From an uncultured Rhodospirillaceae bacterium (GTDB lineage: Bacteria; Pseudomonadota; Alphaproteobacteria; SP197), in contig CALGGB010000095.1 in the NCBI GenBank assembly GCA_937880925.1, positions 4,782 to 68,781 of the forward strand: DNA of 64,000 nucleotides. The letters are read 5' to 3'. Position numbers and translations under genes: made by a program. Position 1 is the first letter of the stretch. Each line of letters starts with the position of its first letter. Shown piece by piece: positions 2,413 to 30,806 of this stretch. Under the pieces are notes generated by a model that worked only from the letters and a program-made list of their open reading frames with translations, had not been told where the DNA came from and made no database searches.

Positions 2413-3462
2413 CTAGAAGCCGGCCTTCAATTCTTCCCACATGTTGGAGGCCTTCTCGCGGACCTCGGGGTTCCACTCATCGAAGAAGACGCCCAGCGCC
2501 ATGACCTTGTCGGGGTCCTCGATGCCCAGTTCGACAAGCAGGTCCTGGTTGGCGGTCTCGAAGGACACCTTGTTGACCGATCCGTAGCCGTACTCCTCGA
2601 TCATGAACACGCCGGCCTCGGGCGAGAGCGTGGCGTCGAGATAGGCATAGGCCTCGTCCTCGTCGCCGGGGCCGTCCTTGATCATGATGCTGGAATCGAC
2701 CCAGGTCAGGATGCCTTCCTTGGGGATCATGTAGCCGACGTCGTAGCCCTGCCGCTTGAGCGATGCGTAGGCGTCGTTCCAGGCATAGGCCGCGACGATC
2801 TCGCCGGAGGCCAGCGCCTGCTCCACGTCCGACTGGCTCGACCAGTAGTACCGCAGCAGCGGCCGCTGCTCGACCAGCAACTGGCGGCAGCGATCGAGAT
2901 CGGCATCGCTCATCTGATAGGGGTTCTCGATCCCCAGGATCAGTGCTGCCTCCAGGAACCCGGCATCGACGGAATCACGCTGGGCCAGGCGGCCGCTGTA
3001 CTTCTCGTCCCACAGGATGCCCCAGCTATCGTTGCCGACGTACTCGGGCGCCAGATCCTTGCGGTAGAGCACGGAGGAGTTGCCCCAGGCCAGCGGCGCA
3101 CCCCAGGTCTCGCCCTCGTAGCTGATGCCCGTGATGTCCTTGAGCTGGGGGAAGACGTTCTCCCAGTTCGAAAGGCGCGAGGTGTCGATCTGCTTGGCCA
3201 GGCCCGCATCACGCCAGCGCCCGATCAGATAGCTGGTGGGCTGCACGATGGTCGGGGCGTAGCCTGCGCGGACCTTTTCGATGGCCTCGTCGTTGTCGGC
3301 ATACAGCAGGTAGCCCGGTGCTCCGAACTCGGCATCGAAGCCGGGGCGGAGTTGCTCGACGTCATAACCCGACCAGGTGAAGATCTGGATCGTGGACTCG
3401 GCGGCGGCGCGCTGCGTCACCATCGGCAGCGAAACGGTGGCGATGCCGACCGAGGCCAACAC
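2413..3462 (-). CDS. Polyamine (spermidine/putrescine) ABC transporter periplasmic binding protein, PotD/PotF family. Orphan: no cognate permease adjacent.
   Basis: 349 aa, PotF-like throughout. GTG start directly abuts an in-frame TAG (see findings). Confidence 0.7.
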   Translation of the reverse strand: MLASVGIATVSLPMVTQRAAAESTIQIFTWSGYDVEQLRPGFDAEFGAPGYLLYADNDEAIEKVRAGYAPTIVQPTSYLIGRWRDAGLAKQIDTSRLSNWENVFPQLKDITGISYEGETWGAPLAWGNSSVLYRKDLAPEYVGNDSWGILWDEKYSGRLAQRDSVDAGFLEAALILGIENPYQMSDADLDRCRQLLVEQRPLLRYYWSSQSDVEQALASGEIVAAYAWNDAYASLKRQGYDVGYMIPKEGILTWVDSSIMIKDGPGDEDEAYAYLDATLSPEAGVFMIEEYGYGSVNKVSFETANQDLLVELGIEDPDKVMALGVFFDEWNPEVREKASNMWEELKAGF

Positions 3463-3665: not shown

Positions 3666-5039
3666 CTAGCGGTCGCGCCAGGCGAAGGCGAGCCTGAGGG
3701 CCCGCAGGGAGGATGCGGTGCCGCACAGCACCACAATGCCCTTTTCCGACAGCGCCTTGCCTGCCGTCATCAGCCCCGACATCGGCGTGTTGATGAGCGC
3801 TGCCATCGGCTTTGCCGTACCCGCCTGGGCGCCGACCAGGGCCTTGGAATAGCCGCCCTCGGTGGTCGGGCTCCAGGTGAAGTCGCCGCAGAACATCGTG
3901 ATGGCGACGGCAGGATCGTCGGCAAGTGCCGAGAAGAACTCCTGGAAGTCGTCCTCGAAGTTGTTTGCAGTGCCCCAGGCGTCCAGCGGGTTCACCGGCT
4001 CCAGTGCGTGGTGCAGCCGGGCGGCGAAGCGTGCCCGGGTCTTCTCGCCGATCTGCGCGAACGCCACCCCGGCGTCGTGTGCCAGGTCGACCAGCATCTC
4101 GCGCTCGCCGCCGCTGTCGAGCACCACGCCCAGGTCGCCGTCCGCGATCTTGCGCGCGCTGGAAAGCAGGGTCAGCAGATTGCCCATTTCCTCCATGTTG
4201 GCCACGCGCAGCACGCCGTGGCGGGCAAACATCGCCTCGTAGTCGGCATCCCTGCCGGTGTCGGCGTTGGAATGCACGCGGGCAAAGGCCGCCGCGGCGG
4301 GCGTGCGCCCGACCTTCATGGCGACCACGGGGACGCCCTGGGCGAATGCCCTGGCCAGTGCCGTCTCCATGGCGGCTGGGTCGCGCGCCTGTTCCATGAA
4401 CAGGGCGATGGCCCTGGTCGAGGGCATCTCCAGGGCATAGTCGATGTATTCGGCCATGGTCGCACCGATCTCCTGTCCGCAGGAGACGACCAGGTTGCAG
4501 CCGTAACGCCAGTCGTTGAGCCCGATCTCGCTGAACACCGTGCCCGAATGGGTGATGAAGGCGACATTGCCGCCCTCGCGCATCTTGTCGGCGGCGTTGT
4601 AGGTCGTCGCCGGAATGCGCCGGGCCATGTTGAGAAAGCCCATGCCGTTGCCGCCGCACACCGGCATGCCGGCTTCGGCCGCCATGGCCTTCAGGCGGGC
4701 AAGCAGGGCGCGCTCGGGATCGTTGTCGACATAGCAGGTGTCGAAGATGACCGCAGCCCTGATGCCGCGCGCGATGGCGTCTGCCAGCTGGCCTTCGATA
4801 TGGGCGCTGTTGACCCCGATGATGGCGAGGTCCACCGCCTCGGGAATGTCCTGCAGACTGCCGAAGCAGGGCAGGCCGTGGACGGCGTCGTACTTGGGAT
4901 TGACCGCATAGATCGTGCCGCCGAAGGCGCAGGCCTGCAGGCCTTCGACCATGCCGCTGCCGACGCTGCCCGGTCGTTCGGAGGCTCCCACCACGGCGAT
5001 GGAGCGGGGGTTGAGCAGGGGATCAAGGCGATGGCGCAT
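3666..5039 (-). CDS. Acyl-CoA synthetase (NDP/ADP-forming), CoA-binding plus ATP-grasp/ligase-CoA domains
   Basis: 457 aa. N-terminal CoA-binding motif (IAVVGASERPGSVG). Overall similarity to acetate--CoA ligase (ADP-forming) and succinyl-CoA-ligase-like enzymes. Confidence 0.65.
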   Translation of the reverse strand: MRHRLDPLLNPRSIAVVGASERPGSVGSGMVEGLQACAFGGTIYAVNPKYDAVHGLPCFGSLQDIPEAVDLAIIGVNSAHIEGQLADAIARGIRAAVIFDTCYVDNDPERALLARLKAMAAEAGMPVCGGNGMGFLNMARRIPATTYNAADKMREGGNVAFITHSGTVFSEIGLNDWRYGCNLVVSCGQEIGATMAEYIDYALEMPSTRAIALFMEQARDPAAMETALARAFAQGVPVVAMKVGRTPAAAAFARVHSNADTGRDADYEAMFARHGVLRVANMEEMGNLLTLLSSARKIADGDLGVVLDSGGEREMLVDLAHDAGVAFAQIGEKTRARFAARLHHALEPVNPLDAWGTANNFEDDFQEFFSALADDPAVAITMFCGDFTWSPTTEGGYSKALVGAQAGTAKPMAALINTPMSGLMTAGKALSEKGIVVLCGTASSLRALRLAFAWRDR

Positions 5040-5253: not shown

Positions 5254-7188
5254 ATGACCGCGAAGGCGGCCGAGAAGAAGGATGTGCGGCGCAAGGATCT
5301 GATCGAGGCCACGATCAGCGCGATCGCGCACAACGGGTTTGCGCGCACGACATTGGCCGATGTCGCCGCAGCCGCGGGTTTGTCGCGCGGCATCGTCAAC
5401 TTCTACTTCGAGAGCAAGGACGATCTCTTCCTGGAGACCCTGCGTTATCTTGCCGAGGAATATGCCGGACTGATCCGCGCCGCGGTCGACGCCGCCGGCA
5501 GCGATCCGGCTGCCCGCGTCGTCGCCTTCATCGACGCCGACCTCAATCCGCGCGTCTGGAATCTCGACCGCATCGCCGCCTGGGTGGCCTTCCTGGCCGA
5601 ATCCAAGAGCCATCCCGACTACCGCGAGATCTGCCGTCGCTACGACGTCGCCTCCGCCGAGGAGCTTTCCAACCAGATCGAGCTGCTCATCCTGCGCTCG
5701 GGCCGCCCGTCCTCGGACGGCGTGGTGATCGCGCGCTGCCTCTCGGCGATGCAGCAGGGCTTCTGGTACGACCTGCTGTTCTACGGCGAATCCTACGATC
5801 ATGCCTTCGTGCGCGGCGCGCTGGTCGACTATCTCGCCCGCGTCATGCCCGAAAGCTTCGATTCCTATCGCCGCGCACCGGCGCAACGCCCGACCCTGTC
5901 GGTCTATACCGCCGGCGGCGCCGACGATGCCCTGCCGCGCGAACTGCCGCTGACCGCCCTGCCGGGCGACCCCCTGCCGGAACCGCCGGCCACCGGTTCG
6001 ACGCTGGCGGGCGGGGTCAAGACCCTGCCGGCCTGGACCTACAAGAACGACGAGTTCTACCAGCTCGAGACCGAGCACATCTTCGACACCCACTGGCAGG
6101 TCGTCTGCCACCTCAACGATGTGAAGAAGGCCGGTGACTACGCCACGCTCGATCTGGCGACGCGCCGCGTGGCCGTGATCCGCGACAAGGCCGGCGACGT
6201 GCGCGCCTTCCACAACGTCTGCCGCCACCGCGCCGCCCGCCTGTGTCCGGGCAAGCACGGCAACCACCGCTTCAACATCGTCTGCCCCTACCACGGCTGG
6301 TCCTACAACTTCGACGGCACCCTGCGCGCCATGTCGGAGGGCCACACCTTCCCCGAGATCGACACCGACAAGTTCGGCCTTTGGGAGATCGACACGGAAA
6401 TCTGGAACGGCTTCGTCTTCGTGCGCCTGAAGAACGACGACGGTCCCAGCGTCGAGCAGATCATGGCGCCCTATGCCGAGGAGCTTGCGCCCTATCGCTT
6501 CGCCGAGATGGAGCCGATCGGCCCCATCTGGACCGGTCCGGTGGTCAACACCGACTGGAAGAACACGATGGACAACTACCTGGAGGGGTATCACATCAAC
6601 CCCGGCCATCCCGGCCTCTTCCGCATGTTCGGCAACAGCTACGTCACCGAGGCCAACGAGCACGGCACGGGCCGCGCCTTCTCGGTGCTGAAGGACGAAC
6701 CCTCCAGCGTCTGGGCGGAGGGTCTCTACATGAAGCTGCTGCCCAGCTTCGACCACCTGCCCGAGGAGCGCCAGCGCGCCTGGGTCTACTACAGCCTGTT
6801 CCCCAACATGGCCTTCGACGTCTATCCCGATCAGGTGACCGTATTCCACGTCATGCCGATCGCGCCGGGCAAGAGCCAGGTCGTCGGCGGCGCCTACGCG
6901 CTGCCCGATGCCCGGCGTGAGGTGAAGGCCTGCCGCTGGCTCTCCAACCGCATCAACCACCAGGTCTGGCTGGAGGACAACGAACTCACCGACCTGGTGC
7001 AGGAAGGCCTGCAGTCGGGGCCTTACACCACGGGTTACTTCTCCGAGAAGGAGGTGTGTCTGGCCCGCTTCCACCAGAACATCCGCGCCCGCCTGCCGGT
7101 CGCCACCCTCGACCGCGTGCCTCACGAAGGCAACGTCGCCGACGTCAACGCCCAGCTTTCAAGGCGCCTCGCCGAAGCGGCGGAGTAG
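5254..7188 (+). CDS. Fusion protein: N-terminal TetR/BetI-type HTH regulator domain (about 200 aa) plus C-terminal Rieske [2Fe-2S] non-heme-iron oxygenase alpha subunit (GbcA/CntA-like)
   Basis: A single uninterrupted 644-codon frame from an SD-preceded ATG. TetR HTH: LADVAAAAGLSRGIVNFYFESKDDLF. Pro-rich linker. Rieske motif CRHRAARLCPGKHGNHRFNIVCPYHGW. Mononuclear-iron region DNYLEGYHINPGHPG. Confidence 0.7.
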   Translation: MTAKAAEKKDVRRKDLIEATISAIAHNGFARTTLADVAAAAGLSRGIVNFYFESKDDLFLETLRYLAEEYAGLIRAAVDAAGSDPAARVVAFIDADLNPRVWNLDRIAAWVAFLAESKSHPDYREICRRYDVASAEELSNQIELLILRSGRPSSDGVVIARCLSAMQQGFWYDLLFYGESYDHAFVRGALVDYLARVMPESFDSYRRAPAQRPTLSVYTAGGADDALPRELPLTALPGDPLPEPPATGSTLAGGVKTLPAWTYKNDEFYQLETEHIFDTHWQVVCHLNDVKKAGDYATLDLATRRVAVIRDKAGDVRAFHNVCRHRAARLCPGKHGNHRFNIVCPYHGWSYNFDGTLRAMSEGHTFPEIDTDKFGLWEIDTEIWNGFVFVRLKNDDGPSVEQIMAPYAEELAPYRFAEMEPIGPIWTGPVVNTDWKNTMDNYLEGYHINPGHPGLFRMFGNSYVTEANEHGTGRAFSVLKDEPSSVWAEGLYMKLLPSFDHLPEERQRAWVYYSLFPNMAFDVYPDQVTVFHVMPIAPGKSQVVGGAYALPDARREVKACRWLSNRINHQVWLEDNELTDLVQEGLQSGPYTTGYFSEKEVCLARFHQNIRARLPVATLDRVPHEGNVADVNAQLSRRLAEAAE

Positions 7189-7399: not shown

Positions 7400-9718
7400 A
7401 TGCCCTATCCATTGCCCGCCGGCGCCCGCGACTGGCAGCAGAAGATGCGCACGTTCACCGATGAGCGGCTGATCCCCTGGGAGGTCCATGCCGAGATGAA
7501 CGACGGCTTCGTACCCCAGGAGGAGCATGAGGCGATCTTTGCCGCCACGCGCGCCATGGGTCTCTACTTCCCATCGCTACCGCGCGAGGGCGGCGGCGCG
7601 GAACTCACCAAACTGGAGATCGCGGTCATCCAGGAGCAGGTCGGACGCGCCACCAACGGCCTGGGGTTCTGCTACGCCGACCTTTCGCCCTTCCTCTACC
7701 ACACGGCCAACCCGCACCAGATGGCCCGCTACGTGAAGCCGATGCTGCAGGCCGGCAAACGTGTCGCCTACGCCATCACGGAAGAGGGCGCTGGCTCGGA
7801 CGTCGATGCCATCGAGGCGACCGCCACCAGGGACGGTAACGGCTACATCCTCAACGGCGTGAAGCTCCACGTCACCGGCGCCAACCTTTCCGACTGGCTG
7901 GTCTTCCAGGCCAAGCTGGAGGACGGCAGCCACGCGCTGTTTTATGTCGACTCCGGCGCCAAGGGCGTCTCGACCATCCGCACCCCTAAGTACACGCACA
8001 ACTTCCGCGCCCATCACCTGCTGATGAAGTTCGAGAACGTGCATGTCACCGCCGACGACATGATCGACCCCGATGGCGACGCCATCGGCTGGACCTACGA
8101 CTGGTTCCGCCAGGAGCGCATGAAGATCGCCGCGCGCTGCTGCGGCGCCGCCAGCCGCCTGATCGACGAGGCCCTTGCGTTCGCGCAGGAGCGCGTGCAG
8201 TTCGGCACGCCGATCTGGGAGAACCAGGCGGTCCAGTTCCCCATCGCCGACAGCCTCACCGAACTCTGGGCCGGCCGGCTGATGACCTACGACCTGGCCG
8301 CGGCCATGGATGCGAAGGAAGACGTCAAGGTGCTGCACGCCAAGTGCGCCATGGCCAAGCTCTTCTGCTCGGAATTCGCCTGGCGCACCGCCGACCGCGT
8401 CGTCCAGGTCTTCGGCGGCCGCGGCTACATGCGCGAGAACCCGGCCGAGCGTTTCTATCGCGAGCTGCGCGTCGACCGCATCTGGGAGGGCACCAGCGAA
8501 ATCCAGCGCGTCATCATCGCGCATAGTCTGAGGAAGCGCGGCCAGGAAGCCCTGATCGGTGTGCCCGAGACGGAAAAGGCGAAGGCCTGGCACGCCAAGC
8601 TGCGCCCCTTCGTCGAGAAGGAGCTGATCCCATGGGAGCAGCACGCCGAGGACAACGACGGCTTCATTCCCGACGACATCCGCAAGGGCCACATCCAGAA
8701 GGCAAGGGAGATGGGCCTCTGGCTGCCGCTGATCGACAAGGAACACGGCGGCGGCGGTCTCGACACCTCCGAGATCGTCGCGGTCCAGGAGGAGATCGGG
8801 CGTGTCACCAACGGGGTGGGCTGGTGCTACCACGACACCTCGCCCTTCCTGGTCAACACGGCAACGCCCTGGCAGATGGAGCACTACGTGAAGGGCCTGC
8901 TCGATGGCACCCGCCACGAGTGTTACGCCATTACCGAGGAGGGCGCGGGCTCGGACGTCGACGCGATCAAGGCGACCGCGAAGAAAGAGGGCAACGGCTA
9001 TGTGCTCAACGGCCTGAAGTGGCACGTCACCAGCGCCAATCTCGCCGACGTCATCATCTTCCAGGCCAAGCTGGAGGACGGCAGCCATGGCCTGTTCTAT
9101 GTCGACAGCGACGCTGAAGGCATCGAGACCGTGCGCACGCCGGCCTACACCCACACCTATCCCGCGCACCATCCGATCATGAAGTTCACGGATGTGAAGG
9201 TGCCCGCCGATGCCCTGATCGATCCCGAAGGCAGCGGCATCGCGCTCACCCACGAGTGGTTCCGCCAGGAGCGCCTGGGCATCGCCGGACGCTGCTGCGG
9301 CGCGGCTTCGCGGCTCATCGACGAGGCGCTTGCCTTTGCCGAGGAGCGCGTGCAGTTCGGCAAGCCGATCATCGAGAACCAGGCCATCGCCTTCATGCTG
9401 GCCGACAGCCTGACCGAGCTGTGGGCCGGCCGCCTGATGATCCATCGCCTGGCCCAGGCGATCGATGCCGGCGAGGATGTGAAGGTCCAGCACGCCCAGT
9501 GCGCCATGGCCAAGCTCTACTGCTCGGAGATGGCAAACCGGGTCGCCGACCGCGCCGTGCAGATCTTCGGCGGGAGGGGTTACATGCGCGAATACGCCGC
9601 CGAGCGCTTCTATCGCGAGCTGCGCGTCGACCGCATCTGGGAAGGCACCAGCGAGATCCAGCGGATGATCATCGCCCACAGCCTGGCCAAGCGCGGCCAG
9701 GACGAGCTGATCGGTTAG
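7400..9718 (+). CDS. Tandem-duplicated acyl-CoA dehydrogenase (two complete ACAD units in one 772-aa polypeptide)
   Basis: Residues 1-386 and 387-772 are clearly paralogous at roughly 60-65% identity. Each half ends with the ACAD C-terminal block containing the catalytic Glu (IWEGTSEIQR). Confidence 0.8.
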   Translation: MPYPLPAGARDWQQKMRTFTDERLIPWEVHAEMNDGFVPQEEHEAIFAATRAMGLYFPSLPREGGGAELTKLEIAVIQEQVGRATNGLGFCYADLSPFLYHTANPHQMARYVKPMLQAGKRVAYAITEEGAGSDVDAIEATATRDGNGYILNGVKLHVTGANLSDWLVFQAKLEDGSHALFYVDSGAKGVSTIRTPKYTHNFRAHHLLMKFENVHVTADDMIDPDGDAIGWTYDWFRQERMKIAARCCGAASRLIDEALAFAQERVQFGTPIWENQAVQFPIADSLTELWAGRLMTYDLAAAMDAKEDVKVLHAKCAMAKLFCSEFAWRTADRVVQVFGGRGYMRENPAERFYRELRVDRIWEGTSEIQRVIIAHSLRKRGQEALIGVPETEKAKAWHAKLRPFVEKELIPWEQHAEDNDGFIPDDIRKGHIQKAREMGLWLPLIDKEHGGGGLDTSEIVAVQEEIGRVTNGVGWCYHDTSPFLVNTATPWQMEHYVKGLLDGTRHECYAITEEGAGSDVDAIKATAKKEGNGYVLNGLKWHVTSANLADVIIFQAKLEDGSHGLFYVDSDAEGIETVRTPAYTHTYPAHHPIMKFTDVKVPADALIDPEGSGIALTHEWFRQERLGIAGRCCGAASRLIDEALAFAEERVQFGKPIIENQAIAFMLADSLTELWAGRLMIHRLAQAIDAGEDVKVQHAQCAMAKLYCSEMANRVADRAVQIFGGRGYMREYAAERFYRELRVDRIWEGTSEIQRMIIAHSLAKRGQDELIG

Positions 9719-9728
9719 GGCAGGGACC

Positions 9729-10463
9729 GTGGCCGCCAGCCAGCCCAGCGTCATCGGCCATCGCGGCTGTGCCGCCCACGCGCCCGAAAACACGCTGGGC
9801 GGCTTCGGCCGTGCGGCCGAACTGGGTTGCGACTGGGTCGAGTTCGATATCCAGATCTCGCGCGACGGCGTGCCCGTGGTGATGCACGACGCGAACCTGG
9901 AACGCACCACCGGCCTCGACATGCCGGTGCGCTTCCTGGTTGCGCGGCGTATCGCCGAACTTGATGCCGGCTCCTGGTTCGGTCCGGAATGGCGCGACGA
10001 ACGGGTGCCGACGCTCGCCCAGGCGCTCGATGCCTGCGCCGTGCTCGGTCTGATGCCCAATGTCGAGGTAAAATACGATTGCGGAGCCCTGCGCCGTTGC
10101 GCGCGGGCGGTCGCGGCCGTCATTGCTCAGCGCTGGCCGGCGGGCAGGGACCGGCCGCTGGTATCCAGTTTCAGTCTGCGCGCGCTCTACTGGTCGCGCC
10201 TGGCCGGCCCCGAACAGCCTCTGGCACTTCTGATGTGGCAGAAGCCGGTAAAGTTCTGGGGGCTGCATGCCCGCCTGCTGTCCTGCCGCGCGATCCATGT
10301 CGATGCGTCGCTGGCCAGTCAGGCGCTTCTGGACAAGGCACACCGACGTGGCCTGAAGGTCGGTGTCTATACCGTCAACGATGGCGCGCTCGCCGCCGAA
10401 CTGCGGGAACGGGGCGTCGACTACATCTTTTCCGATAAGCCCGAAGAGATGGCAGCCACCTAG
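9729..10463 (+). CDS. Glycerophosphodiester phosphodiesterase (GDPD family)
   Basis: N-terminal VIGHRGCAAHAPENTLGGF...DWVEFDIQISRDGVPVVMHD is the GDPD catalytic signature. 244 aa. Confidence 0.8.
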   Translation: MAASQPSVIGHRGCAAHAPENTLGGFGRAAELGCDWVEFDIQISRDGVPVVMHDANLERTTGLDMPVRFLVARRIAELDAGSWFGPEWRDERVPTLAQALDACAVLGLMPNVEVKYDCGALRRCARAVAAVIAQRWPAGRDRPLVSSFSLRALYWSRLAGPEQPLALLMWQKPVKFWGLHARLLSCRAIHVDASLASQALLDKAHRRGLKVGVYTVNDGALAAELRERGVDYIFSDKPEEMAAT

Positions 10464-21810: not shown

Positions 21811-22641
21811 CTAATTTTCCGGCCCCGCCGGCACCGGCCCCGTCGGGGGATAGCTGCCGTCTTCGTCGTGCAGTTCGTTGCCGTGGAGCGGCGGGTTGAA
21901 GATGCTCAGCACATGGGAGTCCTCGGCGATCCGCACATGATGGCGGTCCCTGGGGCCGACGGCGAAGATGCTGCCGGTGCCGATGTCGTGGGTCTTGCCC
22001 GTGGCGTGGTCGGTGACCACGAGCAGGCCATCGAGCACGATGTTGGCCTCCCAGTGGTTCTTGTACCAGAGTGCCATTTCCTGGCCCTTCCGGAAGCGCA
22101 CGTCCGAGAGGGTGAAACCCAGCCCGTCCGGCGCGGTCAGCAGGCGCGCCCAGCGCGGCGAGCCGCCCTCCTTGACCACGACATGGCCGGCGGCCTCGGC
22201 GTCCTTCCAGGTGCGCACGAACATCGCCGGCTGTCCGGGCGGGATCTCGCCGCCGGGCGGATAGCTGCCGTCTGCATCGTGGCTCTCGCCGCCCTGCAGC
22301 GGCGGGTTGAAGACGCTGATGATGCGGAAGCCTTCGCCACCGGCGTTCTCCAGGCGGTGGCGGTCGGTCGGGCCGACGCAGTAGAGCATGCCGGGTTCAA
22401 GCTGCCAGACCTGGCCGGTGGTCAGGTTTTCCAGCGTGCCCGTGCCCTGGCGCACGTAGTTCGCCTCCCAGTGGTTCTTGTACCAGAGGGTCGCGTTGCC
22501 GCCCGGCGCGCCGCGCGCCTCCGAAAGCGAAAAGCCGATGCCGTCGGAGCGGTTGATCATGCGCAGGGCGCTCGACCTGCCCTGGTTGATGGCGATCAGG
22601 CGATCGCCGCTCTCCATCTCCTCGAGCGTGCGGACCAGCAT
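21811..22641 (-). CDS. Didomain ectoine-synthase-like protein (two tandem EctC-type cupin domains), paralog 6 of 6
   Basis: N-terminus MLVRTLEE mirrors EctC MIVRNLEE. Both halves carry WYKNHWEAN, the cupin motif RH[RH][LV], and NPPLxGxExHDxDGSYPP. Confidence 0.8.
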   Translation of the reverse strand: MLVRTLEEMESGDRLIAINQGRSSALRMINRSDGIGFSLSEARGAPGGNATLWYKNHWEANYVRQGTGTLENLTTGQVWQLEPGMLYCVGPTDRHRLENAGGEGFRIISVFNPPLQGGESHDADGSYPPGGEIPPGQPAMFVRTWKDAEAAGHVVVKEGGSPRWARLLTAPDGLGFTLSDVRFRKGQEMALWYKNHWEANIVLDGLLVVTDHATGKTHDIGTGSIFAVGPRDRHHVRIAEDSHVLSIFNPPLHGNELHDEDGSYPPTGPVPAGPEN

Positions 22642-22657
22642 GGTGTTCTCCTCGGTG

Positions 22658-23473
22658 TCAGGTTTGCGGCCCCGGCGGCAGCGGGCCGGTGGGGGGATAG
22701 GCGCCGTCCTCGTCGTGCACCTCGGTGCCCGAAAGCGGCGGGTTGAACAGGCTCACGATGTGGAAGTCGCGCACCGCCTTCAGCGTGTGGCGGTCGTCGG
22801 GCCCCACGGCATACATCATGCCCGGCGTCAGCTTCAGTACCTCGCCGGTGCCGTGGTGGTGCAGTTCGCCCTCGCCGCCGAAGACATAGTTGCCTTCCCA
22901 GTGGTTCTTGTACCAGAGGTTGGCTTCGCTGCCGTCCTGGAAGTGAACGTCCGACCAGGTCAGTCCCAGGCCGTCGGCATCCAGCAGATAGCGCAGCAGT
23001 TGCGAGCCGCCCTTGCTCGTCTTGGCGCGGCCCATGGCCTGCAGGTCCGCCGGGCGATAGACGAACATCGCCTCGTGCCCCGCGGGCGGCGGCGTGGCGC
23101 CGCGGGGATAATTGCCCTCCGCGTCGTGGCTTTCCGTACCGCTCAGCGCCGGGTTGAAGACCCCCAGCACCGTGCATTCGGTGAGGTCCGTGACGCGATG
23201 GTGATCGTTCGGACCGACGCAGTACATGTCGCCCGGCCCAAGTTCCCAGCTCCGCTTCTCGCCCGAAAGCTCCTCCAGCAGGGCGCGGCCGGAGATCATG
23301 TAGCTCGCCTCCCAGTGATGGCGGTACCAGATGGTATGCGGCCCGCCCTTGGGCGCGGTGACCACAGAGATCGAGAAGCCCAGCCCGTCGCCGGCCAGCA
23401 GCAGGCGCTGGGTGTTCGCCCCGCCGTGGGAGATGGCGGTGCCGTTGAGGTCGGTGCGCGTGCGGTGGAACAT
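22658..23473 (-). CDS. Didomain EctC-like cupin protein, paralog 5
   Basis: 271 aa with two EctC-like halves (WYRHHWEAS / WYKNHWEGN; C-terminal NPPLSGTEVHDEDGAYPPTG). Confidence 0.8.
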   Translation of the reverse strand: MFHRTRTDLNGTAISHGGANTQRLLLAGDGLGFSISVVTAPKGGPHTIWYRHHWEASYMISGRALLEELSGEKRSWELGPGDMYCVGPNDHHRVTDLTECTVLGVFNPALSGTESHDAEGNYPRGATPPPAGHEAMFVYRPADLQAMGRAKTSKGGSQLLRYLLDADGLGLTWSDVHFQDGSEANLWYKNHWEGNYVFGGEGELHHHGTGEVLKLTPGMMYAVGPDDRHTLKAVRDFHIVSLFNPPLSGTEVHDEDGAYPPTGPLPPGPQT

Positions 23474-23476
23474 CGC

Positions 23477-24292
23477 TCAGATCCCTCCCGGGCCCGGCGG
23501 CACCGGCCCGGTTGGGGGATAGCCGCCCTTGTCGTCGTGCAGCTCGTCGCCGGCCAGCGGCGGATTGAAGATGCTGACCAGATGCAGGTCGCTGCCCGCC
23601 GTCAGGGTATGGCGATCCTCCGGCCCGACACAGTAGAGCAGGCCGGGCGCCAGAATCAGCGTCTCGCCGGTACCGTGATGGTCGATCGTGCCGCTGCCGG
23701 AAAAGACATAGTTGGCTTCCCAGTGGTTGCGGTACCACAGGTTGGAGACGACGCCGTCCCTGAAATGAACATCCGACCAGGCAAAACCCAGCCCGTCCTC
23801 GGCCAGCAGGTAACGCAGCAGTTCGGCGTTGCCGGAAGCGCTGGTCTTGGCACGGCCCCGCTGCTTCAGATCACCGGGCGTGACGACGAACATGGAAGGC
23901 TGCCCCGCCGGCACGTTGCCGGTGGGCGGATAGGTGCCTTCGCTGTCATGAGTCTCGTCGCCGTTGATCGGCGGGTTGAAGACGCTCATTACCGTCATCG
24001 GCGTCTGCGCGGTGACCCGGTGGCGGTCGGTCGGGCCGACGCAGTACATGTCGCCCGCCGTCAGGTCCCAGGTCCGCCCGCTCGCCACCTCTTCCAGGAG
24101 AAGCTCCCCGGCAATGACGTAGTTGGCCTCCCAGTGGTGCTTGTACCAGAGCTCGTGCGGCCCGCCGGCCGGCCCGGTGACGATCGAGAGCGAAAAGCCC
24201 AGGCCATCGCCTTTCGTCAGGGGCCGCGCCGCGCTCGCCTTTCCGTGGGAGATGGCGACGCCGCGCGCCGTGTCGATGCTGCGATGGAACAT
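23477..24292 (-). CDS. Didomain EctC-like cupin protein, paralog 4
   Basis: 271 aa. Both halves EctC-like (WYKHHWEANYV / WYRNHWEANYV). Confidence 0.8.
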   Translation of the reverse strand: MFHRSIDTARGVAISHGKASAARPLTKGDGLGFSLSIVTGPAGGPHELWYKHHWEANYVIAGELLLEEVASGRTWDLTAGDMYCVGPTDRHRVTAQTPMTVMSVFNPPINGDETHDSEGTYPPTGNVPAGQPSMFVVTPGDLKQRGRAKTSASGNAELLRYLLAEDGLGFAWSDVHFRDGVVSNLWYRNHWEANYVFSGSGTIDHHGTGETLILAPGLLYCVGPEDRHTLTAGSDLHLVSIFNPPLAGDELHDDKGGYPPTGPVPPGPGGI

Positions 24293-24296
24293 GGTG

Positions 24297-25124
24297 TCAG
24301 CTTCCTTTCGGTCCGGGCGGCACGGGGCCGGATGCGGCGAGCGTGCCCTCCGCGTCGTGAATCTCGTCGCCCCGCAGGGGAGGATTGAAGACAGAGATGA
24401 GGTGAAGGTCTTCCTCCGCGTGCATGGCGTGGCGGTCCTTGGGCCCGACGCAGTACATCATGCCCGGCTCCATCACCCAGCTCTCTCCCGTCGTCAGGTC
24501 CTCGACGCGGCCGCGCCCGGAGAGCACCACGTTGGCCTCCCAGTGGTGCTTGTACCAGAGCGTATTGCTGTTCCCCGCAGGCATGTGAACGTCGCTCAGC
24601 GTGATGCCGACATCGTCCTCCTGCGTCAGCATGCGCAGGGTCGTCGCCGAGTCCGCGGCGGCCGAGAGAAGGCGTCCGGCATCGCTCAGTTCCGTCACCG
24701 ATTTGGCGAACATCTTGGGCTGGCCCGCCGGCACCGGCCCGGTCGTGGGATAACTGCCGTCGGCGTCATGCTCCTCCTCGCCCGACAACGCTGGGCAGAA
24801 GACGCTGACGATGTGGCAATCCCCGCTCGCCACCATGCGATGCCTGTCCCGCGGCCCCGCGACATAAAGCAGTCCCGGCTCCAGCCGCCAGGTGCGTCCG
24901 TCGTCGAGGTCGGTAACGGTGCCCGCGCCCGCCACGATGTAGTTGGCTTCCCAGTGATGCTTGTACCACAGCGTGAAATCCATCCCCGGCGCCAGCCGCA
25001 CGTCCGACAGCGAGAACCCCAGCCCGTCATCCTTCGCCAGCATTCGGGTCGAGACAGTCTTGCCCTCGCACAGCACCTTCTGGCGCGGTGTGCCGGTCAG
25101 CTCCTTCAGGGTGCGTGCGAACAT
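24297..25124 (-). CDS. Didomain EctC-like cupin protein, paralog 3
   Basis: 275 aa. Both halves EctC-like (LWYKHHWEAN in each). Confidence 0.8.
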   Translation of the reverse strand: MFARTLKELTGTPRQKVLCEGKTVSTRMLAKDDGLGFSLSDVRLAPGMDFTLWYKHHWEANYIVAGAGTVTDLDDGRTWRLEPGLLYVAGPRDRHRMVASGDCHIVSVFCPALSGEEEHDADGSYPTTGPVPAGQPKMFAKSVTELSDAGRLLSAAADSATTLRMLTQEDDVGITLSDVHMPAGNSNTLWYKHHWEANVVLSGRGRVEDLTTGESWVMEPGMMYCVGPKDRHAMHAEEDLHLISVFNPPLRGDEIHDAEGTLAASGPVPPGPKGS

Positions 25125-25133
25125 GGCGCTCTC

Positions 25134-25946
25134 CTAAACCCAGGCTTCCGGCACGGCTCCGCCCGGTGGATAGCCGCCCAGGTCATCGTAGCGTTCGGTG
25201 CCGACAAGCGGCGGGTTGAAGACGCTGAGCCAACGCACGCCGTTGCTGTTGCTCACACGGTGCTTGTCCTTCGGGCCGATGACGAAGAGGTCGCCGGGTT
25301 CCAGCGCGTGAGTCTTGCCGGTCGCCTTGTCGAGCACTTCGGCCGAACCCTCGACCAGGTAGTTCGCCTCGACATGGTGGCGGTACCACAGGTCGATCCC
25401 GAGGCCCGGCTTGGTCGTGAGGTCCGAGAGCGAAAGGCCGATACCGTCGGCGGCGAGCAGGGGACGGTGGACACCAGAGCTGCCGGTGCTGAGTTCGGTG
25501 CGCACATAGTCGCGCGGGCCGCGCACGAACATCGTCCTTCCGCCGTTGCCCCACCCTTCCGGCAGGGGCCCCGATGTTGCAAAGGCGCCATCCGCGCCCT
25601 TCTCCAGGATCAGGGCGGGCGTGAACATCGAGAAGGTCGTCCACGGCCCCTCGAAGGCGATGCTGTAGCGGTCGTCGGGACCGACGACGTAGAACGAACC
25701 CGGCTCCAGCGGCCATGTCTGCCCGTCCTCGCGCGTGATGCGGCCCGTGCCCTCCAGCACGTAGTTGCCCTTCACATGATGCGGGTAGTTCAGCGGCCCG
25801 GTCTCGATCGGTTCATCGGATTCGACCGTCGCAAGGGCAAAGCCGGTGCCTTCGTCCCGGGTCAGGTAGATCAGCGCGCGGGCGCCGGCGCCAAAGGGGG
25901 TCTCGCGGGCGCTGCCTGCGAGGTCGCGCTTGCGGATCACCAGCAC
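25134..25946 (-). CDS. Didomain EctC-like cupin protein, paralog 2. N-terminal half degenerate.
   Basis: C-terminal half retains WYRHHVEANYLVEG...NPPLVGTERYDDLGGYPPGG. N-terminal half has lost the WYKNHWE and ExHDxDG blocks. Confidence 0.7.
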   Translation of the reverse strand: MLVIRKRDLAGSARETPFGAGARALIYLTRDEGTGFALATVESDEPIETGPLNYPHHVKGNYVLEGTGRITREDGQTWPLEPGSFYVVGPDDRYSIAFEGPWTTFSMFTPALILEKGADGAFATSGPLPEGWGNGGRTMFVRGPRDYVRTELSTGSSGVHRPLLAADGIGLSLSDLTTKPGLGIDLWYRHHVEANYLVEGSAEVLDKATGKTHALEPGDLFVIGPKDKHRVSNSNGVRWLSVFNPPLVGTERYDDLGGYPPGGAVPEAWV

Positions 25947-25998
25947 CCCCGGACCTCCCAGGCTCGTGTTGTCGTCGCCGTCGGTACATGGGTGGCGT

Positions 25999-27174
25999 TC
26001 ATGTTGCCTGCTTTCCGCGCGGGATCAATTTTTCGGCGTCATAGAACGGCAGCGCAACGGTCTCTCCCGGCACGGCGTCGGGGCCGCAGGCGACGTGGCG
26101 ACCGGTCCAGTCGCCCGGGGCATCGAAGCGCGCATAGGCGACATGATGCCCCAGGAACGGCGAGAAAGCCGACGCGGTGATGCGCCCGGCCGGCTTGCCG
26201 TCGACCGCCAGAGTCATGCCGGCGGCGATCTCGGCCTGCGCTTTCAGGCCCACGAGGCGGGGCCGCCGGTCGGCGTCGACCAGTGCCTCGCGGCCGATGA
26301 AGTCTTCCTTGGTCAGGTCGACGAACTGTCCGATGCCCGCGGCAAAGGGTGTCATCGAGGGGTTCATGTCGGTGCCGTTGTCGAGGATGCCGCTTTCGAT
26401 GCGGCGGATGTTCATGCACGACATGGAGGCAAAGCGCATCCCGTGGGGCTTGCCCGCCGCCATCAGGTGGTGCCACAGGGTGGCGTGGTCAGCGGTTTCC
26501 GGCACGTAGATCTCGAAACTCAGCTCCCCGGTCCAGCCGGTGCGGGTGATGAGCAGCGGCTGGCGCGCCATGGTCACCTGCGCGCAGGAGAAGTAGGGGA
26601 AGGGATCGGGCGCGCCGCCGTCGCAGAGGTCGGCGAGCACATCCATGGATTTCGACCCCTGTACCTGGAGCACCCAGTCCTCGGTGTCGACGATCTCGAC
26701 ATCGAAGCCCTTCTGGTGCGCCTTGAGCCAGCCGAAGATCTCGCCGTCGGCCAGCACGTAGCGGAAGTGGTCCTCGGCGAGGCGGATCAGCACGCCGTCC
26801 ATCAGCACGCCGCCGTCATCGTAGCACATCAGACCGTAGCCGCAGCGCCCCACCTTCATTGCCGAGATGCGGCGGGTCATCAGGTGGTCGAGGAATCGCG
26901 CGGCGTCGGGGCCGACGAACTCGATGGCGTGCTCGGGCACGTCGAACAACGTCGCGGCCTTGCGCAGGTTGGCGTATTCGGCCTCCACGTCATCGTCGAG
27001 ATAACCCGGGGACATGTGGCCGCTGTAGACCGAGAAGGATGCGTTGGGCCCGATCCGGTCCTCGTAGAACGGGATGAAGGGAGACGCGCGCAGACGTCCG
27101 AAACGCCAGGGGCGCACGGGCAGGCTGCGGCCTCGGCCGGTACGGGCGGTATGTCCAGTAGCCTGGTTTGTCAT
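25999..27174 (-). CDS. Aminomethyltransferase family protein (GcvT/DmdA-like folate-dependent demethylase)
   Basis: 391 aa with glycine-cleavage T-protein fold similarity. Embedded in the EctC-like operon. Confidence 0.7.
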   Translation of the reverse strand: MTNQATGHTARTGRGRSLPVRPWRFGRLRASPFIPFYEDRIGPNASFSVYSGHMSPGYLDDDVEAEYANLRKAATLFDVPEHAIEFVGPDAARFLDHLMTRRISAMKVGRCGYGLMCYDDGGVLMDGVLIRLAEDHFRYVLADGEIFGWLKAHQKGFDVEIVDTEDWVLQVQGSKSMDVLADLCDGGAPDPFPYFSCAQVTMARQPLLITRTGWTGELSFEIYVPETADHATLWHHLMAAGKPHGMRFASMSCMNIRRIESGILDNGTDMNPSMTPFAAGIGQFVDLTKEDFIGREALVDADRRPRLVGLKAQAEIAAGMTLAVDGKPAGRITASAFSPFLGHHVAYARFDAPGDWTGRHVACGPDAVPGETVALPFYDAEKLIPRGKQAT

Positions 27175-27185
27175 GTCCGCGTCCT

Positions 27186-28025
27186 TCAGCGCCAGGCCGC
27201 GGGGATCTCGCCCGTGGGCGGGTAGGCGCCGTCCGCGTCGTGGGTCTCGCCGCCGACAAGGGGCGGGTTGAAGATGCTCAGGATGTGGATGCCGTCCGTG
27301 TTGGTCACGCGGTGGCGGTCCCTGGGGCCCACGACATAGAGCGTGCCGGGCACCAGCGGCCAGGTCTTGCCGGTCGCCATTTCCATCACCTCGCCGCCGC
27401 CCGAAACCACGAAGTTGGCCTCGACATGGTTCTTGTACCAGAGCTGGCTTGCCCCGCCTGGCTTGGCGCGCAGGTCCGACAGCGTCATGCCGACATCATC
27501 GGCCTTGGTCAGGTAGCGCCTTGCTTCCGCCCGGCCTCCGCCCAACTGCACCACAGGAATGTCGGCGAGTTGCTTCACGAACATCCGCCGGCTGGTCGGG
27601 CTGCCGCCCGCCGGACCCCAGGCCTCAGGAATCTCGCCCGAGGGAGGGTAGCCGCCGAAGTCCTGGTGCTGCTCGTTGCCCTTGATCGGCGGGTTGAACA
27701 GCGAGATTACCTTGACGTCGCCCCGCAGCATGACCTCGTGGCGGTCGGCCGGCCCGACGACATAGAGGGTGCCGGGAGAGGCCGGCCAGCGTTGGTCTGT
27801 ATCCAGGTTGTGAATCTCGCCCACGCCTTCCAGGACCAGATTGACCTCGATGTGGTTGCGGTAATGCAGGGGGAAACCGGAGCTGCCGCCGGGAATTTCC
27901 AGCGTCGAGAAGGAAAAGCCGCAGCCGTCCTCTTCCGCCAGGTAACACATGGCGTGGGCTTTGCCGCCTGCGACCATGCGGTCGCGGCCGGTTCCTGCGA
28001 TATCCGCGATCGATTTCACCAGCAT
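27186..28025 (-). CDS. Didomain EctC-like cupin protein, paralog 1 (first gene of operon)
   Basis: ATG 28025 (MLVKSIADIAG..., with SD GGGAAGGA) is preferred over the track's GTG at 28052. Both halves EctC-like (HYRNHIEVN / WYKNHVEAN; NPPLVGGETHDADGAYPPTG). Confidence 0.75.
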   Translation of the reverse strand: MLVKSIADIAGTGRDRMVAGGKAHAMCYLAEEDGCGFSFSTLEIPGGSSGFPLHYRNHIEVNLVLEGVGEIHNLDTDQRWPASPGTLYVVGPADRHEVMLRGDVKVISLFNPPIKGNEQHQDFGGYPPSGEIPEAWGPAGGSPTSRRMFVKQLADIPVVQLGGGRAEARRYLTKADDVGMTLSDLRAKPGGASQLWYKNHVEANFVVSGGGEVMEMATGKTWPLVPGTLYVVGPRDRHRVTNTDGIHILSIFNPPLVGGETHDADGAYPPTGEIPAAWR

Positions 28026-28150
28026 GGTCACATCCTTCCCTGTCCAGGTCACATGACAGCCTACCTGACAGGCTGCTGCAAGTCGCAGGTGGCCGTGCTA
28101 AATCTTGCCGTCCATGGGGACTATTCCCACAGTACGGAAAGGGCAGGGCG
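28026..28150. promoter_or_regulatory. Divergent promoter/leader region between the EctC-like operon (-) and the cupin/DoeB-like operon (+). Contains the dyad CAGCCT-N7-AGGCTG (28058-28076).
   Basis: Sequence inspection. The dyad lies 33-51 bp upstream of ATG 28025. Confidence 0.4.
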
Positions 28151-28498: not shown

Positions 28499-28549
28499 CT
28501 CCCATCCCCGCGCCTCCGACAAGGTGCCGGGTGATCGCTGGAGTTGCCG

Positions 28550-29689
28550 ATGTCGCACGAGGTCGAGACGATACCGCTGATGGCGCCCGGGCCGGGCACC
28601 AGCCGTGCGCTGACCGTGCATCGCTTCGGCACGCGTGGCCTCGGCCCTAAACTCTATTTCCAGGCGGCGCTGCACGCCGACGAGCTGCCCGGCACCCTGG
28701 TGCTCAATCACCTCATCGGCTGGCTGGCCAAGGCAGATGCACGCGGCGAGGTCATGGCCGACATCACCGTGCTGCCCTATGCCAATCCGGTGGGCCTGGC
28801 CAACCGCATCCACGGCTATCACCTGGGCCGCTACGACCTTGATGGCGACGGCAACTTCAACCGCTGGTATCCGCGCCTCTCCGAAAAGGTCGCCGACAGG
28901 ATCGGCAATCGCCTTGGCGACGATGAAGCCGAGAACCGCGCCATGATCCGCGCCGCCGCGCTGGAGGTGGTGGAGGACTGGCAGGCCGAGGGTGAGGCCA
29001 ACGTGCTGCGCAAGGCGCTGATGGCGCTCTCGGTCGATGCCGACATGATCTTCGACCTGCATTGCCACGGCGCCGCCGTGCAGTATGCCTACTTTCCTGA
29101 AGCGCAGTGGCAGGCCTACGGCGATCTCACTGCTGAACTCGGCTGCCGCGTCGTCCTGTTTTTTCCCACCGACGAGGGTTCGACCTTCGATGCCGTCGCC
29201 AGCGTGCTGATGCACGACCTGGCGGCCCGCTTCCCGGACCGCCCGATCCCGCCGCCGCCCTTCACCACGACCCTGGAGCTGCGCGGCCAGCAGGATGTCG
29301 GCGATGCCCTGGCCGAGGGCGATGCCCGCGCCATCCTGCGCTTCCTGCAGCGCCACGGCATGGTCGCGGGCGATCCCGGCCCGCCGCCCGAGCCCTTGTG
29401 CAAGCCGACGCCGCTGGAAGGTTCCGATACCCTTGTCGCGCCCTGCGCCGGGGTGATCTCCTACCGTGTGCCCCTGGGCGGAACCGTGAAGGCGGGCGAT
29501 GTCGTGGCCGATATCGTCGATCCCGCCGTTGCCGATTTTGCCGCAGCGCGCACGCCGGTCGCCACACGCACCGGCGGCATCGTCTATGGCCGCAACGTCT
29601 CCATGCTGGTGAAGCCCGGCCAGAGCTTTGCGGTGGTTGCGGGCGATCACGCCCTGCCGCCGCCCGAGCTGCCCCTGATCGACCACTGA
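28550..29689 (+). CDS. Succinylglutamate desuccinylase/aspartoacylase (AstE/AspA) family zinc deacylase, DoeB-like, paralog 1 of 3
   Basis: ATG 28550. Zn-ligand context AALHADELPG and DLHCHG. About 380 aa, typical of the family. N-acetyl-DABA deacetylase DoeB belongs to this family (established knowledge). Confidence 0.7.
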   Translation: MSHEVETIPLMAPGPGTSRALTVHRFGTRGLGPKLYFQAALHADELPGTLVLNHLIGWLAKADARGEVMADITVLPYANPVGLANRIHGYHLGRYDLDGDGNFNRWYPRLSEKVADRIGNRLGDDEAENRAMIRAAALEVVEDWQAEGEANVLRKALMALSVDADMIFDLHCHGAAVQYAYFPEAQWQAYGDLTAELGCRVVLFFPTDEGSTFDAVASVLMHDLAARFPDRPIPPPPFTTTLELRGQQDVGDALAEGDARAILRFLQRHGMVAGDPGPPPEPLCKPTPLEGSDTLVAPCAGVISYRVPLGGTVKAGDVVADIVDPAVADFAAARTPVATRTGGIVYGRNVSMLVKPGQSFAVVAGDHALPPPELPLIDH

Positions 29690-29696
29690 GGCGGCC

Positions 29697-30806
29697 GTGA
29701 CCCACGTCACCGAACGTTTCGATCTGCCCACCGCCACTCTGGGTACCGGCCGGCACCTGCTGGTCCATCGCTTCGGCACGGCGGGCGCGCGGCCCAAGGC
29801 CTATCTCCACGCCGGGCTTCATGCCGCGGAGCTGCCCGGCATCGTCGTGCTCGATCATCTGCTCGACCGCCTGAGTGAGGCCGATGCCGCGGGGCAGGTG
29901 ACGGGCGAGATCGTCGTCGTGCCGTTCGCCAATCCCATCGGCCTTGCCCAGCAGGTGCTGATGGAGGCCCAGGGCCGCTACGATCTCGACACCAACCGCA
30001 ACTACAATCGGGGTTTCCCCGATCTGGTCGACGGCGTGCTCGAACGTATCGAGGGCCGCCTGGGCGAAGACGGCGCGGCCAATGTCGCCGTCGTGCGCGC
30101 GGCCATGGCAGAGACGCTCGCCGCCCGGCGCGACAAACGCGAGCCCGAGGTGCTGAAGGCGACGCTGATGCGCCTTTCTTTCGACGCCGACATCGTGCTT
30201 GACCTGCATTCGGCCTGGGAGGCGTTGCTCCACGTTCTGGTCAGCGACAGCAACTGGCCGGATGCAGAGGACCTCACTCGCCAGATGGGGGCCGAGGTCG
30301 TGATGATCGATCGTGGCAACCGCATGATGACCTTCAAGTCCGCCCATGTCCTGGTCTGGAAGGCGGTCGCGGCGGCCTGGCCCGGCCTGCCGGTGCCGCC
30401 CGGCGCGCTCGCCGCCGTGGTCGAGCTGCGCGGTCAGCGCGATGTCGACGACCATCTCACGCGCCCGGATGCCGACGGCCTGTTCCACTTCCTGCAACGG
30501 CGCGGCCTGATCGCCGGCCATCCGGGCCCGCTGCCCGAAGCGCTGTGCCCCGCCCGTTCCAGCAAGGGGTTGTGGCGCCTGTTCGCCGAAACCTTCGGCA
30601 TCCTCGTCTATCACTGCGAGCTGGGCGATCGCGTGCGCGAGGGCGAAACGATCTGCCACATCGTCGACCCCGAGAGCCGCAGGCGCACGCCCGTGCCGGC
30701 GCCCATCGACGGCCTGCTCTACGCCCGCCGCAGCCATCGTTTCACCCGCCAGGGCCAGTACTTCTGCGCTATCGCCGGCGACATGCTGCACGAGACCGCG
30801 CCATGA
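29697..30806 (+). CDS. AstE/AspA family deacylase, DoeB-like, paralog 2
   Basis: GTG start. AGLHAAELPG and LDLHSAWEA motifs. Collinear with paralogs 1 and 3. Confidence 0.7.
   Translation: MTHVTERFDLPTATLGTGRHLLVHRFGTAGARPKAYLHAGLHAAELPGIVVLDHLLDRLSEADAAGQVTGEIVVVPFANPIGLAQQVLMEAQGRYDLDTNRNYNRGFPDLVDGVLERIEGRLGEDGAANVAVVRAAMAETLAARRDKREPEVLKATLMRLSFDADIVLDLHSAWEALLHVLVSDSNWPDAEDLTRQMGAEVVMIDRGNRMMTFKSAHVLVWKAVAAAWPGLPVPPGALAAVVELRGQRDVDDHLTRPDADGLFHFLQRRGLIAGHPGPLPEALCPARSSKGLWRLFAETFGILVYHCELGDRVREGETICHIVDPESRRRTPVPAPIDGLLYARRSHRFTRQGQYFCAIAGDMLHETAP

Follow-up and report, generated by a model that had tools for sequence, protein, structure and literature searches.

The two-unit gene and its conservation

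The stretch of DNA considered here, called the window throughout, comprises 64,000 nucleotides of contig CALGGB010000095.1 (positions 4,782 to 68,781, forward strand; assembly GCA_937880925.1) from an uncultured Rhodospirillaceae bacterium, and all coordinates refer to it. On its forward strand, a complete gene at 7400..9718 encodes a protein of 772 amino acids (aa) consisting of two acyl-CoA dehydrogenase (ACAD) units, referred to as the double ACAD in the following. The gene is real, its conservation extending over a small group of uncultured Alphaproteobacteria, and both units are apparently catalytically competent, as deduced from their residues. The features on which the analysis is based are listed below, where N and C denote the first and second half of the protein, FAD is flavin adenine dinucleotide, and MCAD, LCAD, and IVD are the medium-chain, long-chain, and isovaleryl-CoA dehydrogenases.

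7400..9718, + strand: double acyl-CoA dehydrogenase of 772 aa, complete gene with stop codon at 9716-9718 (open reading frame listing)
7400-8560, + strand: ACAD unit 1, aa 1-387, as long as the single-unit relatives of loci L013 and L014; FAD and catalytic residues intact in 16/16 orthologs
8561-9715, + strand: ACAD unit 2, aa 388-772, nearer to the inferred ancestral sequence (4/17 fixed N-versus-C differences derived here)
8555..8578, + strand: fusion junction, ...L-I-G / V-P-E-T-E-K, no linker, stop lost
8486..8488, + strand: codon of E363, putative catalytic base of unit 1, equivalent to MCAD Glu376 (alignment)
9641..9643, + strand: codon of E748, putative catalytic base of unit 2, equivalent to MCAD Glu376 (alignment)
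8114..8116, + strand: codon of E239 in unit 1, an additional Glu where LCAD/IVD have their catalytic base (MCAD T255), family-wide
9269-9271, + strand: codon of E624, the unit 2 counterpart of E239, family-wide

The gene starts with ATG, preceded by GGAG 7 nt 5' of the start codon, and its GC content at third codon positions (GC3) of 0.90 is usual for coding sequence here (the window having ~66% GC). Comparison of aa 1-386 with aa 387-772 by BLASTP yielded 250 identical residues out of 383 (65%; 78% positives, 0 gaps, 523 bits, E = 0.0), a match that far exceeds chance. The initial annotation, made from the sequence alone, had described two full ACAD units in one polypeptide with an identity of 60-65%, in agreement with the value measured and with the two sets of Pfam ACAD N, M, and C domains (PF02771, PF02770, and PF00441), one in each half. 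Both PROSITE ACAD signatures were likewise found in either half of the window protein, the three-domain ACAD fold (N-terminal alpha, middle beta, C-terminal alpha) was recognized, and the block RIWEGTSEIQR, whose core IWEGTSEIQR had been pointed out before, is kept with its catalytic Glu by both halves (E363 and E748). The end-to-end arrangement of the units also stands, whereas their boundary had been set one residue off: the repeat register corresponds to an offset of 385 residues, placing the boundary at aa 387/388. At the junction, the codons ...ATC GGT ending unit 1 directly precede GTG CCC GAG... of unit 2, whose first ~8 residues are variable and serve as a connector.

The identical 772-aa protein was found on nine contigs from three sources (NCBI, JGI, and ENA), and 12 clusters (90% identity) showed 73-94% identity to it, their members being 772 aa long except for one of 789 aa and several being located on Mb-scale contigs. 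In a scan of one genome per species, full-length matches were obtained in 17 genomes, all of them uncultured Alphaproteobacteria or 'Rhodospirillaceae' metagenome-assembled genomes. Open reading frames (ORFs) extracted from 15 of these 17 genomes, together with the window protein, constitute the set of 16 orthologs referred to throughout. Counted from the conserved M-x-Y-P start, all 16 are exactly 772 aa long (71-95% identity), and in each of them the junction is open and equal in length, with differing codons.

Such an ORF could also result from the collapse of a tandem gene pair or from a stop codon lost through a sequencing error, and the single 387-aa unit carried at the same position by the closely related L013 and L014 genomes might be quoted for it, but nothing beyond prior plausibility speaks in its favor. 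A missed stop or collapsed repeat is excluded because the junction is open in all orthologs with different codons; moreover, the fusion is present in 16 genomes, the identical protein lies on nine contigs, and neither half is degenerate, so that an artefact, which the initial annotation had named as a possible refutation, can practically be dismissed. A conserved internal start for unit 2 was likewise rejected. Codon 388 is GTG only in the window, where AGGA is present upstream, and in locus L001, and is GTC, GCC, GCT, GGC, or GAC in 14/16 orthologs; a separate start of unit 2 is therefore not conserved.

Residues of the active sites were assigned by alignment to human MCAD, whose numbering is self-consistent in that E376, W166, T168, R256, and Y375 all stand at their published numbers. 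The equivalents of Y133, T136, G141, S142, T168, R256, and R281, as well as those of F284, Q349, G352, G353, E376, G377, and T378, are retained by every one of the 16 orthologs in N as well as in C, i.e., the catalytic Glu and all FAD-contact positions examined are kept in each half, a point that the initial annotation had singled out for checking. Columns conserved in at least 14 of the 16 orthologs number 253 in the N-half and 251 in the C-half (of 385), identities are 79.1% among N-halves and 78.1% among C-halves, and pairwise ratios of nonsynonymous to synonymous substitution rates (dN/dS) range between 0.02 and 0.23 in both halves. Relaxed selection on one half was ruled out by this equality of column conservation and dN/dS.

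These results also bear on the possibility that one half represents a non-catalytic scaffold aiding FAD binding. Such an asymmetry has been described for CasC, where the catalytic Glu is confined to the C-terminal unit and FAD binding requires the N-terminal one; CasC represents the sole experimentally characterized type of fused two-unit ACAD found in the literature search (PMC8399759). For the double ACAD, this arrangement is contradicted by the presence of the Glu and all FAD contacts in both units, and is regarded as very improbable.

Origin and divergence of the two units

The closest single-unit relatives are encoded at loci L013 and L014 in the same syntenic position, and their 387 aa extend from 'MSYPLP' to 'ALIA*'. 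Since unit 1 has the extent of these proteins and is followed by no linker, a tandem duplication of the whole ORF with subsequent loss of the stop codon can be deduced; the intragenic tandem duplication proposed in the initial annotation is thus genuine and included the complete ORF, as the shared termini of the single-unit relatives indicate.

For the half-units, a neighbor-joining (NJ) tree with bootstrap was calculated on Kimura-corrected p-distances. N-halves formed one clade (100% bootstrap) and C-halves another (93.5%), and both joined with the L013/L014 units in a clade (92.5%) branching within the single-unit ACADs from Dongiaceae, Acidimicrobiia, and others. The separate N and C clades therefore point to one duplication event in the ancestor of the group, and the fusion is reconstructed as a single ancestral event. 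Identity between N and C amounts to 61.4% within proteins versus 61.1% across proteins; gene conversion keeping the halves alike was ruled out by these equal values, which indicate that the halves evolved independently.

The L013/L014 single units are 68.5% identical to N and 71.9% to C, N and C being only 61% identical to each other, and identity to the outgroup is 61.9% for L013/L014, 57.4% for C, and 55.4% for N. As the L013/L014 units are nearer to both halves and to the outgroup, N and C must have accelerated after the fusion. L013/L014 are located essentially at the duplication node and may be either pre-duplication representatives or secondarily reduced. Taken together, a gene of 387 codons would have been duplicated in tandem once, in the ancestor of an uncultured alphaproteobacterial clade, with loss of the stop codon and without a linker. 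Just after the fusion, divergence of both units outpaced that of the unfused lineage, to a slightly greater extent in the N unit; thereafter, both have been subject to equal, strong purifying selection, neither becoming a degenerate scaffold.

Fixed differences between N and C occur at 17 positions, the derived state being that of N at 13 and that of C at four. Examples derived in N are EC->VA at aa 122-123, immediately ahead of the FAD motif, and G->K at aa 242, which sits on helix G beside the Glu/Arg pair E239/R240. The fixed differences are mildly enriched in helices H-I (6/17, post-hoc P = 0.016). At the pocket-base position (MCAD E99), an assignment that is uncertain due to an indel in the alignment near MCAD 96-100, the ancestral Trp was replaced by Gly in 12/16 N-halves, C-halves carrying Phe or Trp; in the window protein, the difference is confined to Phe versus Trp. 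Between the halves, the N-terminal alpha domains are 40-47% identical, versus 80-93% for the FAD and catalytic segments.

A subfunctionalized double enzyme, whose N and C sites differ in substrate preference or take successive or parallel substrates, would be in line with the fixed differences (in particular those at aa 242 and aa 122-123), the pocket-base Gly of the N-halves, the low identity of the N-terminal alpha domains, and the post-fusion acceleration of both halves. However, catalytic and flavin-contact residues are identical between the halves, the pocket-base argument suffers from the indel and from the small difference in the window protein, and the enrichment in helices H-I would fit equally well with adaptation of an interface that has become asymmetric. 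Functional specialization of the two sites is therefore considered possible, although somewhat doubtful.

Predicted assembly and comparison with known acyl-CoA dehydrogenases

The AlphaFold2 model of one chain reached a mean predicted local distance difference test score (pLDDT) of 88.7 and a predicted template modeling score (pTM) of 0.91. Over the junction (aa 381-400), pLDDT values are 92-94, and the connector is formed by ~6 non-helical residues (aa 386-391). In rigid-body comparison, a far larger part of the model is covered by PDB chains possessing an extra ACAD-derived helical domain: methylsuccinyl-CoA dehydrogenase (MCD; 6es9/8ciw) was aligned over 498-503 of 545-555 residues at 3.4 A (Foldseek TMt 0.78), 2z1q over 500 residues at 3.3-3.4 A, and ACAD9 over 469 residues. 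The N-terminal extension of MCD (helices A'-E') superposes on MCAD helices G-K across the dimer-dimer interface, and both this extension and the C-terminal domain of VLCAD have been attributed to partial gene duplication (PMC5798300). Since the model aligns with whole chains of the MCD/VLCAD type, the two units of the chain are predicted to be placed across the dimer-dimer interface. The model thus indicates that the second unit would occupy this interface, not the FAD-sharing one, with an ACAD-derived helical domain at the opposite-dimer position as in enzymes of the VLCAD/ACAD9/MCD type.

In such an assembly, the helical C-terminal domains of both units would contact each other in the manner seen at the dimer-dimer interface of canonical tetrameric ACADs, and two chains would pair via the ordinary FAD-sharing interface. 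The double ACAD thus probably dimerizes into a pseudo-tetramer, predicted to hold four FAD and four active sites (two of the N type and two of the C type). Two suggestions of the initial annotation are not supported in their original form. The chain had been regarded as an obligate pseudo-dimer; given that the predicted link crosses the dimer-dimer interface, and as judged from the comparison of the AlphaFold model with PDB structures, it is more aptly regarded as one half of a pseudo-tetramer and less so as an obligate catalytic pseudo-dimer. Likewise, the proposed analogy to a covalent alpha2beta2 steroid ACAD does not seem to fit, because both units are complete here and the link is predicted across the other interface.

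The converse arrangement, in which the two units of a chain form the canonical FAD-sharing dimer (a covalent alpha-beta pair) and two chains build the tetramer via the dimer-dimer interface, has precedents. The alpha-beta pair works in this way in enzymes of the ChsE4-ChsE5 type, and the same is implied for CasC by the requirement of its N-terminal unit for FAD binding (PMC8399759). The equivalents of R281, F284, Q349, and G353, i.e., FAD residues contributed by the partner, are present in both halves of the double ACAD and fit either arrangement. With the alignments of the model favoring the dimer-dimer interface, an intrachain FAD-sharing dimer appears unlikely.

A full-text literature search for fused, tandem, or two-domain ACADs retrieved only the description of CasC. 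CasC from Rhodococcus jostii RHA1 and ChsE3/FadE34 from M. tuberculosis are likewise single polypeptides (~700-800 aa) with two ACAD units (PMC8399759). Unlike these proteins, the double ACAD has the catalytic Glu and all FAD contacts in both units, which are 65% identical, and its predicted tethered interface differs from that of the CasC-type fused ACADs. The context also differs: CasC and FadE34 belong to steroid and bile-acid catabolism, whereas the double ACAD is accompanied by genes for a BetI-type regulator, a Rieske oxygenase, and an ADP-forming synthetase, which do not form a steroid cluster. In the alpha2beta2 steroid ACADs, each alpha-beta pair contains one catalytic Glu and one FAD, resulting in two active sites per tetramer (PMC8399759). 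ChsE4-ChsE5, ChsE1-ChsE2, and Scd1AB resemble the double ACAD in that two different units of ACAD fold build a tetramer-like assembly. However, they are encoded by separate genes and have two sites per tetramer as opposed to the four predicted here, and the covalent pairing of the double ACAD is predicted across an interface other than that of the steroid alpha-beta pair. The doubled ACAD architecture is accordingly already known from steroid-degrading bacteria, and the double ACAD is a symmetric version of it, with both units intact judging from the sequence, rather than a novel type of system.

VLCAD, ACAD9, bacterial FadE-type enzymes (2z1q, 3owa), and MCD (6es9, 8ciw) likewise possess a duplication-derived domain at the position of the dimer-dimer interface (PMC5798300). 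The duplicate in these enzymes comprises just ~170-180 aa of helices, is non-catalytic, and shares only ~20% identity with the core, while the second copy of the double ACAD is a full unit of 385-387 aa with catalytic residues and not a partial remnant. The double ACAD is, in effect, an undegraded form of the VLCAD/MCD arrangement. A bolder interpretation would regard it as an extant, functional stage of the whole-gene duplication that preceded the extra domains of VLCAD, ACAD9, acyl-CoA oxidase (ACO), and MCD, the chain being a half-tetramer with two types of sites undergoing specialization. This is rather improbable at present; if it were true, one gene would yield a hetero-pseudo-tetramer with two substrate specificities.

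Taken singly, the units best match short/medium-chain soluble ACADs (TMt 0.83-0.87), with 194 bits to CarC (6fah_C). AcrC is the top NCBIfam model for each unit, and the Glu376 position is shared with CarC, SCAD, MCAD, and AcrC. Different from these enzymes are an extra Glu at the LCAD/IVD position and a His in place of MCAD Trp166. Both traits extend throughout the ACAD subfamily, including the single-unit relatives as well as N and C: Glu is present at the MCAD E376 and the LCAD/IVD (MCAD T255) positions, and the His replaces Trp166 on the flavin si-face.

Doubled ACADs were found to be recurrent, with at least 14 clusters of two-unit size among the top 150 representatives (50% identity). 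A separate symmetric double-ACAD group (P0013-15) has halves that are 56-70% identical, and P0088 is a further doubled ACAD. Three proteins of 778-798 aa (P0115, P0117, and P0119) contain two ACAD units with halves 35% identical; both units have Ala or Gly at the E376 position and keep the Glu of helix G, being LCAD/IVD-like throughout. Finally, P0093 (768 aa), annotated from the nematode Nippostrongylus brasiliensis on a 28-Mb contig, comprises two MCAD-like units that are 66% identical and both carry E376 and W166; it may reflect tandem paralogs merged into one gene model or a genuine double ACAD of a eukaryote.

Gene neighborhood, probable role, and significance

The double ACAD is surrounded by the following genes:

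2413..3462, - strand: PotF-like periplasmic solute-binding protein, conserved neighborhood
3666..5039, - strand: ADP-forming acyl-CoA synthetase (ACS), alpha-type subunit (CoA_binding_2 and Succ_CoA_lig), divergent
5254..7188, + strand: BetI-type TetR regulator and GbcA-like Rieske oxygenase alpha subunit in one ORF (frame open from 4915)
9729..10463, + strand: GDPD-family phosphodiesterase, 10 nt 3' of the double ACAD

As noted in the initial annotation, the double ACAD gene follows the TetR-Rieske fusion on the same strand, the gap being 211 nt. For the fusion gene, the ATG at 5254 is the probable start, and the sole promoter-like site was detected at 5137-5166; a promoter and terminator scan between the Rieske gene and the double ACAD gave nothing useful. 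The regulator part of the fusion (TetR_N and TetR_C_6) and the Rieske part also form one open ORF in L001, L014, and L044, and in Dongiaceae and other loci the BetI-like regulator and the Rieske protein are encoded by separate adjacent genes. Directly upstream of the single-unit relatives, a BetI-like regulator gene is nearly always present, in many cases along with a Rieske gene. The GDPD gene is probably co-transcribed with the double ACAD and lies downstream of the ACAD at every locus with sufficient flank, including the single-unit loci L013/L014.

The ACS alpha-subunit gene adjoins the double ACAD in most fused loci, and the neighboring ADP-forming synthetase is likely to supply the acyl-CoA substrate. 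One relative, the 954-aa polypeptide P0076, combines Succ_CoA_lig, ATP-grasp_5, and a full ACAD unit. The synthetase of the window consists only of CoA-binding and flavodoxin-like domains, with no adjacent gene for an ATP-grasp partner in the window; a separate ATP-grasp_5 gene was found near the single-unit relative in L082. An ORF of 812 aa in L042 (1898..4336) starts with a related ACAD unit, followed by unidentified sequence. An amidohydrolase also occurs among the neighbors of the double ACAD, and one fused locus has MttB-family and creatinase-family genes nearby.

The gene context (ACS subunit, BetI-Rieske fusion, and GDPD) suggests a short, polar, possibly betaine-type acyl-CoA as the substrate, which is only a guess because no NCBIfam equivalog reaches its cutoff. 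CaiA (crotonobetainyl-CoA dehydrogenase) scored 142-151 bits per unit versus a cutoff of 540, and cyclohexanecarbonyl-CoA dehydrogenase, glutaryl-CoA dehydrogenase, and other named NCBIfam equivalogs stayed below their cutoffs as well. The double ACAD would thus act as an alpha,beta-dehydrogenase on an acyl-CoA that is short, probably polar, and delivered by the adjacent synthetase, within a BetI-regulated catabolic cluster that includes a GbcA-like Rieske oxygenase. A tentative lead on the substrate would be the gamma-butyrobetaine/carnitine CoA pathways, with Sinorhizobium BcoA/B-BcoC as a pairing of an ADP-forming synthetase with an ACAD; the score of the CaiA model is far from its cutoff.

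Other doubled or fused genes are also present in the window. The recurrent pattern noted in the initial annotation was recovered for six genes with two EctC-type units each, a gene with two GFA domains, and the BetI-Rieske fusion described above. The six EctC-type genes are tandem paralogs of 270-288 aa (21811..28052, - strand), each comprising two Pfam Ectoine_synth (EctC-type cupin) units, and such an array of six bicupin paralogs is unusual. It is interrupted by a GcvT-like aminomethyltransferase gene (25999-27174) and adjoined by an Opp/Dpp-type ABC transporter. Two adjacent AstE/AspA-type (succinylglutamate desuccinylase/aspartoacylase) paralogs of 381 and 369 aa (28544..30806, + strand) represent an unfused tandem duplication.

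21811-22641, - strand: EctC-type bicupin gene (Pfam)
22658-23473, - strand: EctC-type bicupin gene (Pfam)
23477-24292, - strand: EctC-type bicupin gene (Pfam)
24297-25124, - strand: EctC-type bicupin gene (Pfam)
25134-25946, - strand: EctC-type bicupin gene (Pfam)
27186-28052, - strand: EctC-type bicupin gene (Pfam)
54054..54905, - strand: protein of 283 aa with two GFA (PF04828) domains, each with C-x-C...C-x-x-C-G (Pfam)

Regarding the double ACAD itself, several points weigh against the interpretation presented here. The placement of L013/L014 in the tree is split (57% with C, 41% with N, and 0% outside N + C) and may be affected by long-branch attraction in the NJ analysis. The geometry was derived from a single AlphaFold2 model, calculated from an alignment of 20 sequences and read via alignment lengths and TM-scores. 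The window, L001, and L002 are the only loci at which the BetI-Rieske gene adjoins the double ACAD, and it is absent from most fused loci. Moreover, the best NCBIfam equivalog, AcrC, reached 174-204 bits per unit versus a cutoff of 640. With these points taken into account, a real two-site protein that originated from a single event and has the predicted assembly and role is, as a whole, considered a likely explanation.

The fused or heteromeric ACADs characterized to date are asymmetric in that a scaffold accompanies a single catalytic unit. A symmetric fusion with two units that both appear to be catalytic would represent a natural test case for the evolution of a homo-oligomer interface after tethering, all the more as the double ACAD can be dated to one event, has close unfused relatives at the same locus (L013/L014), and consists of halves that both accelerated measurably after the fusion. 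For the proposed origin of the extension domains of VLCAD, ACAD9, ACO, and MCD by partial duplication, it would also be a concrete example of a possible intermediate. The practical value is modest and consists mainly in a refined annotation of proteins labeled only as 'acyl-CoA dehydrogenase family protein'. For the uncultured Alphaproteobacteria encoding it, the double ACAD hints at an uncharacterized, BetI-linked acyl-CoA pathway.

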